From NCBI RefSeq assembly GCF_016026235.1, contig NZ_CP065613.1: a DNA stretch of 64,000 bases. The stretch is one strand, 5' to 3'. A program made the translations under genes and the position numbers. The notes below the pieces were generated by a model, which ran no database searches, was not told the DNA's origin, and saw only the letters and a list, made by a program, of their open reading frames with translations. The DNA is from Escherichia coli (GTDB lineage Bacteria; Pseudomonadota; Gammaproteobacteria; Enterobacterales; Enterobacteriaceae). Below are positions 7,723 to 49,200 of this stretch, in pieces; position 1 is the first letter of the stretch, and the number at the start of each line of letters is the position of its first letter.

Positions 7723-7869
7723 GATTCGCCTGAACATGCCCTTTTTTCGTAAGTAAGCAACATAAGCTGTCACGTTTTGTGATGGCTATTAGAAATTCCT
7801 ATGCAACAACTGAAAAAAAATTACAAAAAGTGCTTTCTGAACTGAACAAAAAAGAGTAAAGTTAGTCGC

Positions 7870-7978
7870 GTAGGGTACAGAGGTAAGATGTTCTATCTTT
7901 CAGACCTTTTACTTCACGTAATCGGATTTGGCTGAATATTTTAGCCGCCCCAGTCAGTAATGACTGGGGCGTTTTTTA
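7870..7978 (+). ncRNA. spf: Spot 42 sRNA
   Basis: The 109-nt sequence GTAGGGTACAGAGGTAAGATGTTCTATC...CCCCAGTCAGTAATGACTGGGGCGTTTTTTA is recognised as E. coli Spot 42, including its terminal hairpin and U-run. Confidence 0.95.
7888..7935 (+). CDS. spfP: 15-aa small protein encoded within Spot 42 (SpfP)
   Basis: ATG at 7888 with AGAGGTAAG just upstream. It translates to MFYLSDLLLHVIGFG*. Assignment is from memory of the reported dual-function Spot 42. Confidence 0.5.
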   Translation: MFYLSDLLLHVIGFG

Positions 7979-9006: not shown

Positions 9007-9250
9007 ATAGAGCGAGGACGCTAACAGGAACAATGACTCAGGATGAGGGTCAGGAGCGCCAGGAGGCGAAGACAGAGGATTGTCAGGAAGACAAACGTCC
9101 GGAGACGTAATTAAACGGAAATGGAATCAACACGGATTGTTCCGGCTAAAGGAAAAACAGGGTGTGTTGGCGGCCTGCAAGGATTGTAAGACCCGTTAAG
9201 GGTTATGAGTCAGGAAAAAAGGCGACAGAGTAATCTGTCGCCTTTTTTCT
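9007..9250 (+). ncRNA. csrC: CsrC sRNA (CsrA-sequestering)
   Basis: Recognised CsrC sequence (ATAGAGCGAGGACGCTAACAGGAACAATGACTCAGGATGAGGGTCAGGAGC...) with more than 10 GGA motifs. It ends in the terminator ggcgacagagtaatctgtcgcc + T-run. End coordinates are approximate. Confidence 0.85.
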
Positions 9251-9317
9251 TTGCTTGCTTTCTGTTAGATTCCGCCGCAAATCTATACTGAATAAAACGG
9301 CTAAAAGACGAACCATT

Positions 9318-16026: not shown

Positions 16027-16075
16027 TGCACCAATATAGTGCTTCAATGGAAACATTAAGCACCATATTGGTGCA
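16027..16075. promoter_or_regulatory. NtrC enhancer sites upstream of glnAp2
   Basis: Two dyads, TGCACCAATATAGTGC and GCACCATATTGGTGCA, are centred about 32 bp apart, roughly 110 and 140 bp upstream of the sigma54 promoter. Confidence 0.8.
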
Positions 16076-16226
16076 ATGACCTTTGGATAACCCTTTTTAT
16101 GCTCCGTGAAAGCGATCACAAAGGGACTCTGCAATACTTGTTTGCGGAGGATGTTTGTGATCCTGTTTTGTAGTGCGATTAATCCGTGTACAATAACGCG
16201 CTATTTCTAATGCCTGAGGCAAAGTT

Positions 16227-23619: not shown

Positions 23620-25023
23620 TTATAACGTTACGGAAGCCGTTTTTTCTTCTGTCGCCATCTCTTTATTTTTGCGTTGGTTGATTTCCTCAATAATCAACGC
23701 AAACCGTTTTTCATTGAGTGTGTAAAAGAATCCCATCGTCAATGCAGCAATAATTGCCAGTGCACAAGGCCAGATAAAAATGAGCTGACGCAAACCCTGT
23801 AATGTCGCATCACTTTGCGCGATGTTGGGAACATAACCGATTTGCGTCAGCATAATGCCTGGCAAGAAGCCAGCAAGTGCGGCAGAAATTTTACGAAAGA
23901 AGGTATAACCGGTATAAACAGAACCTTCGGCACGAATACCGGTTTTCCATTCACCGTAATCTACGGTATCTGGCACCAGTGCCCAGTTCAGGCTGTTTAC
24001 AAAGGCCGTGCCAAAAAAGGCGATACAAGAGAACATGACGAAAGTGAAAGAGTTACTTCCCCAGAAATAATTCAGGATATCACCCACTGCCCATAGCACC
24101 ATGCCAGCTAAATAAACCTGTTTTTTACCAAAACATTTTACAGTTAATGGCACCAGTAATACGCCGATGAGGATGCATCCCATACTGAAGAATCCCATCC
24201 ACGACAATAAATTAATATCATTCAGCACATACTGGGTGTAATAGACCTGAATCGCCAGTTTGATATTAAATGCCGCCAGGGTACACAAGTTAGCAATGCA
24301 TAAAACCAGCAATGGCGGATTCCGAAATATCGCGCAAAATGATTTGAGAATACTGGCTTTATGTCCGGTTGGTGCTGTGTCCACATAATGCTCTTTGACG
24401 CCTCTGTAGCACAGCATCATAAAAATAAAGCCACCAATGGAGAACATCAGTGCCGCACAGGCATAACCGACGGTTGAGTCAGAAAAAAGCGACTGCAACG
24501 GAATAAACGCCACGGTACAAATCAATAGCCCTATGGTTGCACCACCCTGGCGGTAAGCCGCGAGCTGCGCGCGCTCATTCGGGTTTTTAGTAATGGCTGG
24601 GATCATCGCACCATACGAGCAGTTCATCAGACTGTATGAAAGTCCAAACATCATAAACAGCGCGGTGGCAATCGTCGTTTTAACCGGCAAACTAAAAGTG
24701 GTGGCGATAAACTGGAGCGTTGCAATTAACGCCGCCGGAACCGCTGCGTATAAAATAAAGGGACGAAATTTGCCTTTAGGCCCAATATTTTTCCGCGAAT
24801 CGAGTAAAAATCCGGTGAGCATATCGGTAAACGCGGTAAAAAACTTCGCCACCAGAAAGATAATCCCGCCATAGTAAGCTGGCATCCCTAATTCATCGGT
24901 ATAAAATTTGAGGAGATACAGAGTACCGATGCTAAGCATTAAATTCGAACCAACGTCGCCCATACCATAGGCGATTTTTTCCCGCAGATTCAGTTTTAAT
25001 GTCAGTGGATTATGGTCAGACAT
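23620..25023 (-). CDS. yihO: GPH-family sugar:cation symporter YihO (sulfoquinovose transporter candidate)
   Basis: 467 aa from MSDHNPLTLK, with SD AAGGAG 5 nt upstream. It is a 12-TM protein and a paralog of YihP. Confidence 0.9.
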   Translation of the reverse strand: MSDHNPLTLKLNLREKIAYGMGDVGSNLMLSIGTLYLLKFYTDELGMPAYYGGIIFLVAKFFTAFTDMLTGFLLDSRKNIGPKGKFRPFILYAAVPAALIATLQFIATTFSLPVKTTIATALFMMFGLSYSLMNCSYGAMIPAITKNPNERAQLAAYRQGGATIGLLICTVAFIPLQSLFSDSTVGYACAALMFSIGGFIFMMLCYRGVKEHYVDTAPTGHKASILKSFCAIFRNPPLLVLCIANLCTLAAFNIKLAIQVYYTQYVLNDINLLSWMGFFSMGCILIGVLLVPLTVKCFGKKQVYLAGMVLWAVGDILNYFWGSNSFTFVMFSCIAFFGTAFVNSLNWALVPDTVDYGEWKTGIRAEGSVYTGYTFFRKISAALAGFLPGIMLTQIGYVPNIAQSDATLQGLRQLIFIWPCALAIIAALTMGFFYTLNEKRFALIIEEINQRKNKEMATEEKTASVTL

Positions 25024-25065
25024 AATCACTCCTTATAACGCCCCGCAGGGCATTGTTTATTATTA

Positions 25066-26451
25066 TTACGCCGTGCGTTTACGGGCTTCTATTTCTTCAA
25101 CAATGCGGACATACATCTTCTCGTTCAGGCTGTAGAAGCAGCCCATCGCCACAATGGTGACTACCGCCAGTGCGCTTGGGTAGATGAAGATCAGCTGGCG
25201 CAACCCTTCAATGGTGTGGTCAGCCTGCGCCACGTTCGGCACATAACCGATTTGCGTCAGCATCCAGCCGGGGAAGAAACCAGCCAGCGCCTGAGACACT
25301 TTGCGAAAGAAGGTGAAGCCGGTGTAGACCGTTCCTTCCGAACGAACGCCGGTACGCCACTCGCCGTACTCGACGGTGTCGGAAACCAGCGCCCAGTTCA
25401 GGCTGTTAACAAACGCTGAGCCGAAGAATGCCAGGCAGGAGAACGCCACGAAGCTGACCGAACCGCCGCCGAAGAAATAGTTGAGCAGATCGCCCAGCAC
25501 CCAAATCAGTAGGCCGCCGATATAGACCTTCTTCTTACCAAAACGCCTGACTGCGCCAGGCATCAGGAACACACCGATGAAAATACAGCCCATGCTGAAA
25601 AATCCCATATATGACAACAGGATGGGATCGTTAAGCACGTACTGGGTGTAATAGACCTGAATGGCGAGCTTGACGTTAAACGCCCCTAAAGTGCAGAGGT
25701 TGGCAATGCACAAAATGAACAGTGGGCGGTTACCGGCAATTGCGCGGAAAGATTGCAACAGGCCTGGCTTTTGCGCCGGATTGGTAGGTTGGGTTTCGAC
25801 ATAACGCTCTTTCACGCCCGAATAGCAGATCCACATAAACAGCAGGCCAAACAGTGAAAACAGCGTGGCGGCGAAGATATAGCCAAGTTGTTGATTACCC
25901 TCGATAAGATTCATAACCGGCACGAATCCCACCGTGCACAGCAGCAGGCCCAGCGTAGCGCCGCCCTGACGCCATGCTGCCAGCGAGGCGCGTTCGTTGG
26001 GGTTTTTGGTAATGGCGGGAACCATTGCGCCGTAGGAGCAGTTCATCATGCTGAAAAACAGCCCGTAGAGCATAAACAGAATAGTGGCCATCACCGTTTT
26101 ACCAGTGACATCGAACGGTGTGCCGATAAAGTTAGCGATTGCCAATAAGGTGACCGGGAATGACGCGTACAAAATGAAAGGGCGGAACTTACCTTTCGGG
26201 CCAATCTTACGCCGGGAATCCAGCATGATGCCGGTTCCCATATCGGTAAAGGCGGTAAAGAATTTCGAGATCAAAAAGATAATGCCGCCATAGGTGCCAG
26301 GTAGCCCCAGAACGTCGGTATAAAACTTCAAAAGATAAAGCGTACCAATATCCAGCAGGATGTTAGAGGCCAGATCGCCGATACCGTAAGAGAGTTTCTC
26401 TTTAAAGGGCAGGCGCAAAGTTGCCGGATCTTCCGTTGTGATGTGACTCAT
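25066..26451 (-). CDS. yihP: GPH-family sugar:cation symporter YihP
   Basis: 461 aa from MSHITTEDPATL, with a GGAGA SD. It shows extensive identity to YihO (LLKFYTD.LG.P..YGGIIFL..KFFTAFTDM). Confidence 0.9.
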   Translation of the reverse strand: MSHITTEDPATLRLPFKEKLSYGIGDLASNILLDIGTLYLLKFYTDVLGLPGTYGGIIFLISKFFTAFTDMGTGIMLDSRRKIGPKGKFRPFILYASFPVTLLAIANFIGTPFDVTGKTVMATILFMLYGLFFSMMNCSYGAMVPAITKNPNERASLAAWRQGGATLGLLLCTVGFVPVMNLIEGNQQLGYIFAATLFSLFGLLFMWICYSGVKERYVETQPTNPAQKPGLLQSFRAIAGNRPLFILCIANLCTLGAFNVKLAIQVYYTQYVLNDPILLSYMGFFSMGCIFIGVFLMPGAVRRFGKKKVYIGGLLIWVLGDLLNYFFGGGSVSFVAFSCLAFFGSAFVNSLNWALVSDTVEYGEWRTGVRSEGTVYTGFTFFRKVSQALAGFFPGWMLTQIGYVPNVAQADHTIEGLRQLIFIYPSALAVVTIVAMGCFYSLNEKMYVRIVEEIEARKRTA

Positions 26452-26496
26452 CGTTATTCTCCATTTGCCCGTGAGTTTCCCCACGGGCGGGCATGA

Positions 26497-28533
26497 TTAG
26501 ATGTTTTTTAACGAGGCGAACAGTGCAGCCCATTCGCTGTCGGCGCGATAAAAGACCGGCGGCTTGCCGATGGGCGCTTCAACAGTTATTTCTCCACCGT
26601 GGAAGGTTTCTCCGGTCCAGGCGTGGACCCAGTTATCCTCTGGCAGATAGAGCGTCCAGTCGCTACGACCTTCTTCGTGTACCGGAGCAACCAGAATGTC
26701 GCGACCTAACAGGTACTGATATTTCAGGGAATAGGTCTGCGCGTCGTCTTCGTAATGCAGGAACAGCGGGCGCATAACCGGCAGGCCGGACTTCGCATTC
26801 AGCGCGACGGCCTCTTTCAGGTAAGGTTTCAGGGTGGTGAAGACGGTGGTCATACGGGCGAAATGGGCGATGGTTTCCGCGTCGCCGTCAAACTGCCAGT
26901 TGTCGCTAGGACGGTTACCTTCGTGGGTGCGCATCATCGGCGTGAAGGCGCTGAAATCGCACCAGCGCAGCAGCAGCTCTTTGCTGCGCTTCATCTCAAA
27001 CAGGGTGGTATAACCGCCAATGTCGCTGTGATGCAGGCCATGTCCGGTCATTGCCAGAGATAGCGCCGCCGGGACAACCGACGCCAGGCCATCGTCCAGA
27101 CTCCAGTCCACGTTCTGGTCACCCGCCCACATCATGGTGGAGTATTTCTGGCTACCGGTAGAACCGGCGCGCATAAAGAAGAGGATCTCGCCGAGCTTGC
27201 CCGTTTCTTCAAGGGCTTCGTAGTTACATTTCGCCCACAGCGCGGGCCAGGCGTTATGCATAATTTCCGCGCTGATGCCGTTATGCAGGTACGTGTCGGT
27301 GGGCAGATACTCGCCGAAGTCAGCCATCCAGCCGCCGCAGCCGAGTTCAATCATGTTCTTTTTGATAACTTCCTTGAACTAGGCGTAGGCTTCCGGATTG
27401 GTGAGATCGACAACGCCGCCGTAGAACTCGCCAAACTCCACCAGATAGTCGCCACCGGCGACATCTTTTGCCAGATAACCGCGCTTTGCCGCCTCTTCGC
27501 AGAGATCTTTATCACTGGCAACATACGGGTTGATATAGGCAAGGAACTGCACGCCCTCTTTGTTCCACTGCTTGATACGCGAATCCAGTTGCGGGTAGTT
27601 TTCGCTGTTCCACTTCCAGTTCCACATCACGCGTTTGCCAAAAGAGGTCATACGAATACCGGACCAGTCCTGCGCCCAGATGCCGTTGACCTTCACGCCC
27701 GCGTTACGCATGGTGTCCAGTTTCTTCTGGCACACTTCCGTCCCGCCCTGAATGCCGAGCGTTACTCCGTCATAAATCCAGTCGGGCAGTTCTGGCTGGC
27801 GTCCCAGCAGGGCGGTTAATTTTTCCAGCAGGGAGATGTATGTGTCAGCACATTCAAAACGCAGCGTTGCTTTGTCTTCCCACAGCGCCAGTTCATGGTA
27901 TTCTGGGGCACTAAAGTCGAAGTTCATATAGCAACTGTTATCAACATGGCAGTAATACTTCTGCGTGCTGACAAACGTAGGCTGTGGGAAGAAAGTCCAG
28001 TAATAGTCGCCGCCCGCATTTTCTTTGCAGTCGGCCTGCCAGGTGACATAGGTTTGTTTGTTGCGACCAACGCCTTGTTCACTGGTCCATAGCGGGAACG
28101 GTTTGCCACGCAGATCGAAGTAGGAAAACTGTTCGCCGCAGCCGTAGATATGGTCCTCTGGTTGAGCGGCAAGGCGCAGCCAGATACGGTTGTGGTTAAG
28201 GTTGTCGTTTTGTAGTTCCAGCAATAAACGGCCCTGATCGTCGGCAGAGATATTCAGCGTGGCGCTAATGTCAGAACCACGGCTGAAATGGATTAACCAA
28301 CCATCCGGCGACTGGCTGACGATGGCGTCGGTAAGCGCAATTTTCTCCTGTAGTTTATCTTTAATGCTGAAATTGCCGCGGAACATATCGATATCCGCAA
28401 TACCTGAACCAATCCATAAACAAGGATTATCTTTGCTATGGGTTAAAATAAGACGCTGTTGAAAATGTAGGGTAAAACTGTCGTTATTCTGATGAAACTG
28501 AAAATCTGGTAATTGTGGGCGTGGCGTATCCAT
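26497..28533 (-). pseudogene. yihQ: sulfoquinovosidase YihQ (GH31) interrupted by an in-frame amber codon
   Basis: The two ORF-track pieces (384 aa and 285 aa) are in the same frame, and the full span is 679 codons. The only defect is TAG at 27379-27381 in the context ...NPEAYA*FKEVIKKNMIELG, where I recall Trp in K-12. The GH31 nucleophile motif WMADFGE lies downstream of the stop. Confidence 0.85.
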
Positions 28534-28641
28534 AAATAATCTCCATAGAGTATAAAGCTAATATTTCATGCCATCCTGTTGTTACAGGTTTCATTAATTA
28601 AAGAATGTGGTGCTGGTATAAATTAAAACCCGCATAAGTGA

Positions 28642-29517
28642 TTATTTACTTTCTTCAGCCCGGCGGATTGCCGCCACTTTTTTACCAAATGCCAGTTGCA
28701 GTATAACTAACAAGGTAAAAGGAGGCAGAAGCGCGGCAGCAGCGGGAATTCCCAGCGCGCCTTTTATCAACATAGAACCGGAGGCAATCAGCAACAAAAA
28801 GACCATCACACGGAACACTTTGACTGAAATGCGTTTATGCACATATTGTCCAACCAGTGAACCGAGGATCATGGTGGGAATACAAAACAGCACCAGTTTA
28901 AAGATAGAAACAGTCAAAATTCCGCTGGTCGCCAGCCCGCCGATCACCGCGATGTTGTTTGCGGTGAAGAAAGCGTTCAGAGTGCCACGAAATGCCGCCG
29001 GGCCTAAGTTACGCAGCATACCGTAGATAACCATCGGCGGTCCGTTGGTTGAAAACGCTGCCCCTAACGCTCCTGCCACAGCGCCGATAGGTGCGGCGAT
29101 CCAGTTGCGGTCATAAATCGGCAGGCGTGGAATAAACATACTGTAAAAGGAGTACAGGATAAGGAATCCGCCTAAGCCCACTTTCATAAAATGGTCGGGT
29201 AAATATGACAGCGCATATAAACCGACGGGTATTCCCAGAAACGAGAAAATAATCAGTACCATTGCCGATCGCCAATCCGTTTCTTTACGTGACAGCCAGG
29301 TGGCGTACAAGGCGGTCGCGGTGCCGACAATCACCGAGAGCGGAGTTGCCATTTTTACGGGGAGCATTAACGTGACGAGCGGCATGGTGGTTAAACCACC
29401 GCCAAATCCCGCGCATATCCCCACAAAGGTATAAAGAAACATTAACGCGATAACGATACATACCACGTTTGTTTCCAGCATGACCCCATCCGGTGAAAAT
29501 AACGTAAAAAAGTCCAT
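28642..29517 (-). CDS. TauE/SafE (TSUP) family anion permease, putative sulfite/organosulfonate exporter
   Basis: 291 aa, about 8 TM segments, two-repeat architecture with GFGGGLTTMP in the first half and GALGAAFSTNGPP in the second. It is co-oriented between yihR and yihQ. Confidence 0.7.
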   Translation of the reverse strand: MDFFTLFSPDGVMLETNVVCIVIALMFLYTFVGICAGFGGGLTTMPLVTLMLPVKMATPLSVIVGTATALYATWLSRKETDWRSAMVLIIFSFLGIPVGLYALSYLPDHFMKVGLGGFLILYSFYSMFIPRLPIYDRNWIAAPIGAVAGALGAAFSTNGPPMVIYGMLRNLGPAAFRGTLNAFFTANNIAVIGGLATSGILTVSIFKLVLFCIPTMILGSLVGQYVHKRISVKVFRVMVFLLLIASGSMLIKGALGIPAAAALLPPFTLLVILQLAFGKKVAAIRRAEESK

Positions 29518-29577
29518 GATATTCCCTGTTGTGTAAATACAACCCTAAACAATGATCTCGTTCTTTTCTTAATAAAA

Positions 29578-30480
29578 TTAATTGTGCTGCCCGTAAATAT
29601 TAAAAAACAGGCGGTGCGTTTTCCCTGGTTCCAGTAATAATAAGTCGAGACCTGAATTAAAGGCGTTAGGTGGGCAACTCATAGGTTCAACTGCCAGTCC
29701 CTGACGCTGTAATTTTTCGCCGCTATAAATCTGCACCCAGGGTTGATCGGAACAAAGGCTTACCGAAAGCGCCTGTTGTGGATGGGTAATGGTTATTTCC
29801 CACAGATCATTAGCGGTTTTAAAGGTGTGGTCGATTTTTGTCGCGGCTATTTTTTTCGCCTGCGTGAAATTTAAATCCAGCTCATCAACGTGGTGAAGCG
29901 TTGTCGGATTAGCGTGCTCATCGACGGCATAAACCTGGTTTGCCGGAAGCTGGAACAGATATTCATCAACAGATGTTAAGTTGCAGGTTAAATAAGGATG
30001 AATACCCACACCATAGGGTGCGGTCACAGTACCAATATTCTGACTTGCGATCTCAACGGAAAGACCCGTGCGTGCATTGAGCGAATAAACAACCTGCGAA
30101 GCCAGCATAAACGGATAGCCGTAACTGGGCGGCAGAAAAGCTGTCAGGGTAACGCTGGTGGCGGTTAATTCGCTGATTTGCCAGTCACGCCAGGCGAGCA
30201 GCCCATGAATAGCGGCTTTTGAACCATGTTCATTAATGGGTAACTGATATTCCTGCCCCTGATAGCGATAACAGCCGTTGGCGATCCGGTTCGGCCACGG
30301 AATAAGGACTTTGCCCAGATGTGCCAGCGGCATCTCTTCGGGTTTATGCGGAATAACTAAATGACAGCCCTGAAAGGTTAATTCAGCCAGACCTGCACCG
30401 ACGGTCACAATGGTCGCGTGATAATCCCCCGCGGCAAGTGAAACGGTCTGTCCACTGCAATGCATGTTGGTGATTTGCAT
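29578..30480 (-). CDS. yihR: aldose-1-epimerase family protein YihR (sulfoquinovose mutarotase)
   Basis: 300 aa, recognised as YihR, with a galactose-mutarotase-like fold. Confidence 0.85.
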   Translation of the reverse strand: MQITNMHCSGQTVSLAAGDYHATIVTVGAGLAELTFQGCHLVIPHKPEEMPLAHLGKVLIPWPNRIANGCYRYQGQEYQLPINEHGSKAAIHGLLAWRDWQISELTATSVTLTAFLPPSYGYPFMLASQVVYSLNARTGLSVEIASQNIGTVTAPYGVGIHPYLTCNLTSVDEYLFQLPANQVYAVDEHANPTTLHHVDELDLNFTQAKKIAATKIDHTFKTANDLWEITITHPQQALSVSLCSDQPWVQIYSGEKLQRQGLAVEPMSCPPNAFNSGLDLLLLEPGKTHRLFFNIYGQHN

Positions 30481-46270: not shown

Positions 46271-49200
46271 TTACACCTTTTCCACATTCACAAGGAAGGA
46301 CTTAAACTCCGGCGTCTGCGTGTTCGCATCACCAACGAATGGCGTTAACGTATTGGCAATAAAGCCTTTTTTAGCTACGCCTTCATAACCCCAGTGAATC
46401 GGAATACCGATGGTATCGATATCTTTGCCGTTCGCTTTCAGCGTGCGAATACGTTTGGTCACCACCGCTTTGGCCTTGATATAGCCACGGTTGGAGGAGA
46501 CTTTCACGGTATCGCCCTGGGCAATGCCAAGTTTATTCGCCAGCGACTCCCCGATTTCCACAAACTGCTCTGGCTGCAAAATCGCGTTCAACAGCGCGTG
46601 TTTGGTCCAGTAGTGGAAGTGCTCGGTCAGACGATAGGTGGTTCCGACATACGGGAACTTATCGGCTTTACCCAATGCTTCGGCGTCGTCTTTAAAGATA
46701 CGTGCAGCCGGGTTCGAGATAACGTTTGGATGCAGCGGGTTAGTTCCCAGCGGCGTTTCAAACGGCTCGTAGTGTTCCGGGAACGGACCTTCCGCCATCT
46801 TATCGAGGGCAAACAGACGCCCCATGCCTTCCTGCTGCATGATAAACGGCCCGACGCCGCTGCCCGGAGGCGCTGCGCTGTAGTCCGGAATATCCCAGCC
46901 GGTCCACTTAGTGCCGTCCCATTTCAGCAACTGACGCTTCGGATCCCACGGGTTACCCTGCGGATCTGCGGAGGCGCGGTTATACAGAATGCGGCGGTTA
47001 AGCGGCCATGCCCATGCCCAGCCCAGCGTGTTACCGAGGCCAGACGGATCGGCGTTATCACGACGCGCCATCTGGTTGCCTTCCGGCGTCCAGCTACCGG
47101 CGAAAATCCAGCAACCACAGGAAGTTGTACCGTCATCGCGCAGTTGGGCGAACGAGCTAAGTTGTTGGCCTTTCTTGACGATAACCGCACCGGTTGCCGG
47201 ATCGGTAATATCGGCCAGCGCCTTACCGTTACTCTCCATCGCCACTTCTTCTGAAGATGGCTCATGCGGAATGGCGTAGTTCCAGGTCATGTTCAGCACC
47301 TGGTCCGGGTTCGCGCCACCCTGTTCGGCATACATCTTGCGCAAGCGCAGGAAGATACCGGAGAGGATCTCGCCGTCAGTCAGCGCAATCCCCGGGGCGT
47401 CCGCACCTTTCCAGTGCCACTGTAACCAGCGACCTGAGTTAACGATAGAACCGTTCTCTTCCGCGAAGCAGGTCGATGGCAGACGGAACACTTCGGTCTG
47501 GATCTTCGACGAGTCAACTTCGTTCAGCTCACCGTGGTTCTGCCAGAAGTTAGAGGTTTCAGTGTTCAGCGGGTCGATGGTGACGAGGAACTTCAGTTTC
47601 GACAGACAACCGATCACTTTGTTTTTGTTCGGGAATGAGGCAACAGGGTTAAAGCCCTGGCAGATATAGCCATTGACCTTGCCCTCTTTCATCATCTCGA
47701 AGTATTGCAGGACGTCGTAGCCTTTATCCCACTTCGGCAACCAGTCAAAGCCCCAGCTATTTTCCGCCGTCGCTTTATCACCAAAGAAGGCCTTCATCAT
47801 AGAGACGAAGAATTTCGGGTAGTTGCCCCAGTAGTTTACCTGGCCTTCCAGCAGCGGTTTTGGCGTGTTGGCGGTAAGGTAGGTTTGCAGATCGGTCTGC
47901 TTCTCGCTTGGCAGCGTCATGTAACCTGGCAGGCTCTGCGACAGCAGCCCCAGGTCCGTCAGCCCCTGAATATTGGAGTGACCGCGCAGGGCGTTAACGC
48001 CGCCGCCAGCCATCCCCATGTTACCGAGCAGCAGCTGGATCATCGCCATCGTACGAATGTTTTGCGCACCAACGGAGTGTTGCGTCCAGCCGAGGGCATA
48101 CAGGAACGAGGCAGTTTTATCGTGAGCACTGGTTTCTGCGATGTATTCGCAGACTTTCAGGAACGCGTCTTTTGGCGTACCACAGATGTTTTCAACCACA
48201 TCTGGCGTGTAGCGGGAAACGTGCTGTTTCAGCAAGTTCCACACGCAGCGCGGATGTTGCAGCGTGGTATCGCGTTTGGCGAAGCCGTTTTCGTCCAGTT
48301 CATAAGTCCAGGAGGATTTATCGTACTTGCGTTTTTCCGCGTCGTAGCCGGTGAACAGGCCATCTTCAAAGCCGTAATCCTCACGCACGATCAGGCTGGC
48401 GTTGGTATAGGCTTCGGTGTATTCGCGGTTGAATTTTTCATTGTTCAGCAGGTACAGCAATACGCCTGACAGGAAAGCAATGTCAGTACCGGAACGAATA
48501 GGGGCATAGTAGTCAGCCACCGCCGCCGTACGCGTAAAGCGAGGATCGATCACAATCAGCTTCGCGCCATTGTGAATTTTGGCTTCCATCGCCCAGCGGA
48601 ACCCGACCGGGTGAGCTTCAGCGGCGTTACCGCCCATCACCACGACGAGGTTGGCGTTCTTGATGTCGACCCAGTGGTTGGTCATCGCACCGCGACCAAA
48701 TGTTGGAGCAAGACTTGCTACCGTTGGTCCGTGTCAGACACGCGCCTGGTTGTCGACCGCGAGCATACCCAGCGCGCGGGAGAATTTTTGCGTTAAATAG
48801 CCGGTTTCGTTACTCGACGCGGAAGCACACAGCATCCCGGTGGAGAGCCAGCGGTTAACAGTCACGCCTTCGGCGTTTTGCGCAATGTAGTTAGCATCGC
48901 GGTCTTCTTTCATCAGTTTGGCGATGCGATCAAACGCCTCTTCCCAACTGATTTGCTGCCATTTATCAGAACCTGGCGCACGGTATTCCGGAAACTTCAG
49001 ACGGCTTTCGGAGTGGATGAAATCCACCAGGCCAGCGCCTTTCGGACAAAGTGCACCGCGGTTGACCGGGTGATCCGGATCGCCTTCGATATGGAAGATA
49101 GATGCTTTGGCGTTTTTTGCTCCGTCACCGAGGCTGTACATCAACAGCCCACAGCCTACGGAACAATAGGTGCAGGTATTACGGGTTTCGCGGGTGCGCA

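Follow-up and report, generated by a model that had tools for sequence, protein, structure and literature searches.

The tauE gene lies within the sulfoquinovose operon

A 64,000-nucleotide stretch of Escherichia coli DNA (contig NZ_CP065613.1, hereafter the window) was analyzed around its yih operon, which encodes the degradation of sulfoquinovose (SQ). The window contains all ten genes of the K-12 cluster (ompL-yihOPQRSTUVW/csqR), with gene order and orientation unchanged and 96–100% amino acid identity. The window differs from the K-12 cluster by an eleventh gene encoding a TauE/SafE-family permease, here called tauE, by a spacer unlike that of K-12 beyond about 55 nucleotides (nt) from yihQ, and by an in-frame stop codon in yihQ (W385*). 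The tauE gene lies between yihR and yihQ and is co-oriented with them. Coordinates of the locus are summarized in Table 1.

Table 1. Position and support of tauE and of its neighbors in the window.
Feature	Position	Strand	Support and remarks
tauE-like gene, 291-amino-acid TSUP (TauE/SafE, PF01925) permease	28642..29517	minus	Open reading frame (ORF) list, translation, Pfam; stop codon at 28642–28644
yihR-tauE spacer, 60 nt	29518..29577	minus	Shine-Dalgarno-like AGGGA, 5 nt before the tauE start codon
tauE-yihQ spacer, 108 nt	28534..28641	minus	About 55–58 nt beside yihQ (28534–28591) are the only part common to the K-12 spacer
yihR, sulfoquinovose mutarotase, upstream neighbor	29578..30480	minus	NCBIfam PRK15172 aldose-1-epimerase, E=2e-186; named yihR in relatives
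yihQ, sulfoquinovosidase, downstream neighbor	26497..28533	minus	PRK10426; in-frame TAG at 27379–27381 (W385*)
yihP, GPH-family MFS permease, putative 2,3-dihydroxypropane-1-sulfonate (DHPS) exporter	25066..26484	minus	tblastn, 98.3% to K-12; K-12 annotation
yihO, GPH-family MFS permease, putative SQ importer	23620..25029	minus	ORF list, K-12 annotation, identity to K-12
yihU, sulfolactaldehyde reductase (makes DHPS), intact, 100% amino acid identity to K-12	32709..33605	minus	ORF list, identity comparison

When the translated product was searched against Pfam, the TauE family (PF01925) was matched with E=4.7e-35 and 121.8 bits (cut-off 32.6), over residues 23–248 of the protein and positions 2–235 of the 237 of the model. 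A Kyte-Doolittle scan detected hydrophobic segments over the whole length, as expected for a polytopic membrane protein, and both this profile and the size of the product fit the TSUP family, whose members have about 250–300 residues and about 8 transmembrane segments. An earlier note on this DNA, made from the sequence alone, had described a 291-residue TSUP permease with a duplicated glycine-rich signature, co-oriented in the operon and separated by about 60 nt from yihR and by about 108 nt from yihQ. The profile search confirms the family and the coordinates agree exactly with the proposed layout. As to the signature, both motifs are present, GFGGGLTTMP from residue 37 (37–46) and GALGAAFSTNGPP from residue 149 (149–161), but similarity between the two halves of the protein was not detected when they were aligned with each other (BLASTP E=19, one sequence only). 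The duplication of four plus four transmembrane segments is thus suggested by where the motifs lie and by knowledge of the family, a profile-level repeat comparison being limited by an alignment that is shallow (all members at least 80% identical).

NCBIfam gave no match specific to the protein, and a sequence search of the PDB at E≤1 retrieved no solved relative. An AlphaFold2 model built from a 22-sequence alignment displayed about 10–11 helices with a pLDDT of 41.5 and a pTM of 0.44; it is indicative only and was left unused. Its poor quality is explained by the closeness of the homologs that could be aligned, all of which share 80% identity or more. Charged residues conserved among them are R77, D108, H109, K112, R169, R177, H227 and K228.

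The protein is 100% identical to WP_000345434.1, a RefSeq-annotated coding sequence of E. coli NCCP 13717, which the Prokaryotic Genome Annotation Pipeline (PGAP) names "sulfite exporter TauE/SafE family protein". The ratio of nonsynonymous to synonymous substitution rates (dN/dS, Nei-Gojobori) calculated between pairs of Escherichia lineages is 0.014–0.051, indicating purifying selection. Since, in addition, the exact protein is recorded on at least 1,000 contigs and the ATG start codon is preceded by a Shine-Dalgarno-like sequence, tauE is a real and intact gene and not a chance ORF. On the minus strand of the two spacers that flank it, we found neither terminator-like nor promoter-like consensus sequences. 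This is compatible with co-transcription, and tauE is probably transcribed together with yihUTSR and yihQPO-ompL.

K-12 possesses another member of the same Pfam family, the housekeeping paralogue YfcA (b2327). The two proteins share 26% identity over 117 residues, and YfcA belongs to a separate subfamily encoded in an unrelated genomic context. At this level of identity, a recent duplication of yfcA is ruled out as the source of tauE.

Distribution of tauE in E. coli

In K-12 MG1655, yihQ (b3878) adjoins yihR (b3879) across a 198-bp spacer in which no gene is annotated, as the earlier note had stated. This spacer was compared with the tauE region of the window and with the corresponding Salmonella region by global and local alignment and by blastn-short, and no remnant of tauE was found in it; it shares with the tauE-containing haplotype only the short segment beside yihQ.

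Of 5,426 complete E. coli genomes, 3,969 were matched by a 1.5-kb query spanning the locus. With a query coverage of at least 80% taken as presence of the gene, tauE is carried at this position by about 1,281 genomes (about 24% of the total), O157:H7 among them. About 2,690 genomes match the yihQ and yihR flanks only, and about 1,460 are devoid of this part of the cassette, in agreement with the "short cassette" of Kaznadzey et al. 2025 (PMC12608037). The rarity that the earlier note had implied is contradicted by these counts, by the presence of the gene across Salmonella and by its PGAP annotation. Hence tauE is a common and already annotated accessory gene of E. coli, although it is missing from the reference strain.

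The best E. coli match to a 3.2-kb region around the locus is 99.8% identical. In strain 1506 (NZ_CP059288.1, 4399881–4402158), an IS1A element is inserted within the counterpart of window positions 28300–29800, a stretch that spans the 5′ end of yihQ, tauE and the 3′ end of yihR and is otherwise 99.9% identical.

tauE probably predates the split between Escherichia and Salmonella

Salmonella enterica carries a tauE ortholog (87% amino acid identity) at the same site, in the gene order yihU-T-S-R-tauE-yihQ-P-O-ompL. In E. whittamii and in Enterobacteriaceae bacterium G50, the ortholog also lies between yihR and yihQ. Identity between the window and Salmonella proteins is 86.9% for TauE and 84.7–89% for most of its neighbors, with yihR (69%) and yihS (97%) outside this interval. 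Because TauE has diverged within the range of its neighbors, it appears to have been inherited together with the yih cluster. The GC content of the gene (49.4%) and that of its third codon positions (GC3, 54.8%) both fall inside the range of the neighboring genes. A recent horizontal acquisition of tauE is ruled out by this composition together with a divergence from Salmonella equal to that of the neighbors.

The simplest reading of these comparisons is that tauE has long belonged to the yih cluster, since before the separation of Escherichia and Salmonella, and has been kept there by selection. The idea of an ancestral, fuller cluster, put forward in the earlier note, fits the same-site orthologs and their neighbor-like divergence. 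The K-12-type arrangement is then most likely derived, by loss of tauE. As neither a scar nor a remnant of the gene was found in the K-12 spacer, the direction of this change is deduced from the distribution.

The adjacent yihR gene is more divergent than its neighbors: besides the low value given above for Salmonella, its product is 90% identical to those of E. whittamii and G50 and 96% to that of K-12, when yihS shows 97–99%. For tauE, the synonymous divergence (dS) of the window from O157:H7 amounts to 0.12. The two observations suggest a mosaic stretch, prone to recombination, around the point where tauE is present or absent.

tauE orthologs are found in two types of sulfoglycolysis clusters

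Homologs with 80–87% identity to TauE occur across Enterobacterales, among others in Salmonella, Citrobacter, Kluyvera, Enterobacter, Klebsiella, Hafnia, Mixta, Pantoea, Morganella, Lelliottia and Leminorella, and homologs with 77% identity in Vibrio. We inspected gene neighborhoods at about 17 loci, which represent about 15 genera. In these loci, every ortholog (77–99% amino acid identity, and 77–85% in about ten genera beyond those with the gene at the same site) is located inside a sulfoglycolysis cluster.

The first type of cluster is the yih cluster, which encodes the sulfoglycolytic pathway of Embden-Meyerhof-Parnas type (sulfo-EMP). There, the position of tauE varies. Escherichia and Salmonella have it between yihR and yihQ, whereas in RIT691 it separates yihQ from yihP. 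In Klebsiella quasipneumoniae it follows yihQ and precedes a single MFS gene, and in an Enterobacter metagenome-assembled genome (MAG) it lies beside yihW.

The second type resembles the sulfoglycolytic Entner-Doudoroff (sulfo-ED) pathway; domain annotation covered its loci in Vibrio owensii, Hafnia, Kluyvera, Morganella, Mixta and Pantoea. A LacI-type regulator and an SSF Na+/solute symporter gene are divergent from the remaining genes, which encode an ILVD/EDD dehydratase, an HpcH/HpaI aldolase, an aldose epimerase, an SMP-30 lactonase, a YihU-like beta-hydroxyacid dehydrogenase, an SDR dehydrogenase and TauE. Raoultella lignicola, Leminorella and Edwardsiella gave the same tblastn matches and gene spacing, a comparison made at the level of matches rather than of domains and, for Raoultella, of listed ORFs. 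Sulfo-ED genes of Hafnia, Leminorella and Vibrio had been listed by Frommeyer et al. 2020 (PMC7491151). By its gene content, this second cluster type corresponds to the sulfo-ED enzyme set in which a reductase replaces the sulfolactaldehyde (SLA) dehydrogenase: a YihU-like beta-hydroxyacid dehydrogenase, and no aldehyde (SLA) dehydrogenase, is present in the enterobacterial and Vibrio loci of this type (L006–L008, L010, L015/L016, L019 and L022–L024 in our set). This composition suggests that they represent a DHPS-forming, and not a sulfolactate-forming, variant of the pathway. In Pantoea, a KdgM/OmpL-type porin gene adjoins tauE.

In Enterobacter kobei (L020, a Logan contig from SRR28780521, 95–18876), a sulfo-ED-type cluster and a yih cluster are adjacent, with only one copy each of tauE and of the mutarotase gene between them. 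The yih part contains neither yihR nor a tauE of its own, and the locus of the Enterobacter MAG (L009) looks alike. In E. kobei, one mutarotase and one TauE thus appear to serve both clusters, and the two Enterobacter loci seem to encode a pair of SQ pathways that share accessory genes.

Two of the tauE-containing yih clusters lack YihP, those of G50 (L004, 8976–12649) and K. quasipneumoniae (L018, 6941–11439). Each encodes only one GPH-type MFS protein, which is nearer to YihO than to YihP. Considering the two cluster types together, the importer candidates differ (GPH-type MFS in one, SSF in the other), and the mutarotase, the SLA-reductase-like gene and TauE are common to both.

In a protein collection clustered at 90% identity, TauE of the window falls in a group that mixes TauE and YihR members. 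The representative of this group (P0122) is a 300-residue protein unrelated to TauE, which we take for YihR from its length; the member P0127, named aldose-1-epimerase, is 97% identical to YihR of the window. The mixed group seems to be an artefact of the clustering, for which a fused gene call may have formed the bridge.

The yihQ gene of this strain contains an in-frame stop codon

The TAG codon found in yihQ of the window replaces Trp385 of its relatives and splits the gene into ORFs of 384 and 285 amino acids. The full-length translation contains this single internal stop, and the two halves match PRK10426 at positions 3–384 and 395–680, respectively. The same base was detected in one (strain ERL04-3476) of the 620 complete E. 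coli genomes matching a 71-nt stretch around it. Either yihQ is a pseudogene peculiar to this strain, or the stop is an error of sequencing. If real, it may leave the strain unable to use SQ glycosides and could exert a polar effect on yihP, yihO and ompL; tauE is located upstream of the lesion.

TauE is a candidate DHPS exporter

In the scheme that we propose, YihU turns sulfolactaldehyde into DHPS, the C3-sulfonate end product, and TauE would export DHPS across the inner membrane, in parallel to the MFS permease YihP or in its place. Among the steps of the E. coli pathway, the earlier note had singled out this export as having the weakest assignment, and in the literature it is indeed assigned only tentatively. 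YihP was designated as the DHPS exporter by elimination, as the "most likely" candidate (PMC6278857), and this tentative assignment is repeated in a 2026 review (PMC12890257). In the K-12 annotation, YihP is a "putative 2,3-dihydroxypropane-1-sulfonate export protein". Although proposed for the same step, YihP and TauE are unrelated in fold and family (MFS_2 versus TauE); yihP is the second gene downstream of tauE, next after yihQ. Members of the GPH family, to which YihP belongs, are typically glycoside symporters.

The linkage data bear on this question. Because both cluster types share a mutarotase, an SLA-reductase-like gene and TauE, the latter appears to track the shared ends of the two pathways, SQ entering and DHPS leaving. 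As importer-type genes are already present, DHPS export is the most economical assignment for TauE. A partial redundancy between YihP and TauE would moreover yield the observed pattern, TauE without YihP in G50 and K. quasipneumoniae and YihP without TauE in K-12. Our preferred reading, to which we give a probability of roughly 0.55, is that TauE is an old and maintained component of enterobacterial sulfoglycolysis, most likely a DHPS exporter acting beside or instead of YihP, and that K-12 has lost it. The alternative raised in the earlier note, a variant operon with a different excreted product, finds no support: YihU is intact and identical to that of K-12 and the yih cluster of the window contains no SLA dehydrogenase, so that DHPS remains the expected product.

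A role in the exit of sulfonates has precedents. In the sulfo-transaldolase (sulfo-TAL) pathway, the TauE-type protein SftE is a "predicted SL/DHPS exporter", SL being sulfolactate (PMC7491151). In sulfo-EMP clusters of Arthrobacter, a TauE permease was proposed to export sulfolactate (bioRxiv 2021.11.24.469816), and SqwE of the sulfo-transketolase (sulfo-TK) pathway is a predicted isethionate exporter of the TauE type (PMC12890257). TauE of the window belongs to the same family (TSUP, PF01925, TC 2.A.102), is likewise encoded within an SQ-degradation cluster and would have the same predicted role, the exit of the sulfonate end product; the likeness is one of family and context rather than of direct sequence comparison. 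In contrast to these three proteins, it occurs in yih and sulfo-ED-type clusters that would make DHPS through a YihU-like reductase, and in the window it coexists with YihP. TauE-type exporters are therefore an already known predicted component of sulfoglycolysis clusters, and TauE of the yih cluster is not a new kind of system. In the open-access literature that we searched, tauE is not mentioned for yih clusters of E. coli or Salmonella, and a supplementary figure of Denger et al. 2014 (Nature) could hold such a mention. The 2025 paper on yih cassette variants (PMC12608037) contains no occurrence of the words TauE, sulfite, permease or exporter. A single yih transcriptome paper, on K-12 and Nissle, turned up in this literature, and tauE is not mentioned in it.

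Several points weigh against DHPS export by TauE as we propose it. K-12, which is devoid of tauE, is reported to grow on SQ and to excrete DHPS (PMC6278857), so tauE is not essential for export. The complementarity between YihP and TauE comes from two YihP-less clusters, which is thin evidence, and the K-12 spacer holds no trace of the gene whose loss the distribution suggests. TSUP, named after a toluene-sulfonate uptake permease, includes presumed uptake systems, hence membership of the family does not fix the direction of transport. Transport or expression data for this TauE were not found in the searchable literature. Finally, as yihQ is broken in the window, the operon may not be fully functional in this strain.

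The same uncertainty of direction leaves room for an importer of SQ or of a related sulfonated substrate (SQ-glycerol or another sulfosugar) that would supplement YihO and YihP. The name of the family favors this possibility, and sulfo-EMP and sulfo-ED clusters, which TauE tracks, are alike in their substrate SQ as well as in their product. We consider it unlikely, since every cluster already has an importer-type candidate (GPH-type YihO/YihP or the SSF symporter) and the sulfoglycolysis papers that discuss TauE-type genes assign export throughout. Export of something other than DHPS also has to be considered. TauE could be a relief valve for another anionic intermediate (sulfolactaldehyde, sulfolactate or sulfofructose) or a general anion permease: the cluster linkage is the same as for a DHPS exporter, the specificity cannot be read from the sequence and there is no solved relative to compare it with. 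Yet all tauE-containing clusters carry a YihU-like reductase and not an SLA dehydrogenase, which designates DHPS as the common end product needing an exit and makes a valve of this kind quite unlikely. A literal sulfite exporter, clearing sulfite released from sulfonates, is what the RefSeq and Pfam names would imply, and the TauE protein of C. necator is said to have been described as such by Weinitschke in 2007. No sulfolyase, Xsc or glycyl-radical C-S lyase domain was found in the annotated yih or sulfo-ED-type clusters. In addition, E. coli is reported to excrete DHPS as the end product of its pathway, with no desulfonation (PMC6278857, PMC7491151). With no desulfonating enzyme and DHPS as end product, no sulfite should arise, and this function is improbable.

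That K-12-type strains manage without tauE, and that yihQ of this strain appears already to be a pseudogene, could suggest that tauE is a decaying or functionless passenger. This is contradicted by the selection and synteny data, namely an intact frame, a very low dN/dS, high conservation at the same site in Salmonella and orthologs always found in sulfoglycolysis clusters, and we regard it as most improbable. There is, on the other hand, a more radical form of the export proposal, in which TauE would be the native enterobacterial DHPS exporter, YihP would be a second importer (for instance of SQ-glycerol or other SQ glycosides) and K-12, having lost TauE, would export DHPS by a stand-in route. 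We hold this form to be rather less likely than not.

Other features of the window

Outside the yih operon, ordinary landmarks were assigned at positions 7860–7978, 9007–9260, 16038–16145, 48681–48739 and 59429–59591, corresponding to Spot 42, CsrC, the ES222 small RNA, a selenocysteine insertion sequence (SECIS) element and two naRNA4 repeats. An 804-amino-acid ORF (46271–48685), presumably fdoG, has the SECIS element, which is on the minus strand, at its 5′ end.

Significance

Taken as a whole, tauE is a genuine gene but for the most part an ordinary one, and public annotation already has a name for it. Surveys of yih cassettes (PMC12608037) and the K-12 reference nevertheless overlook this eleventh gene, which is an obvious exporter candidate. 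On the reading that we prefer, TauE as a DHPS exporter lost by K-12, the "ten-gene" cluster of K-12 would be a reduced version of the operon; if TauE were the native exporter, the textbook transport steps of the sulfo-EMP pathway would have to be revised. The breakdown of sulfoquinovose by gut Enterobacteriaceae releases DHPS, which is food for sulfide-producing bacteria, and tauE is an overlooked and easily testable candidate for its export.

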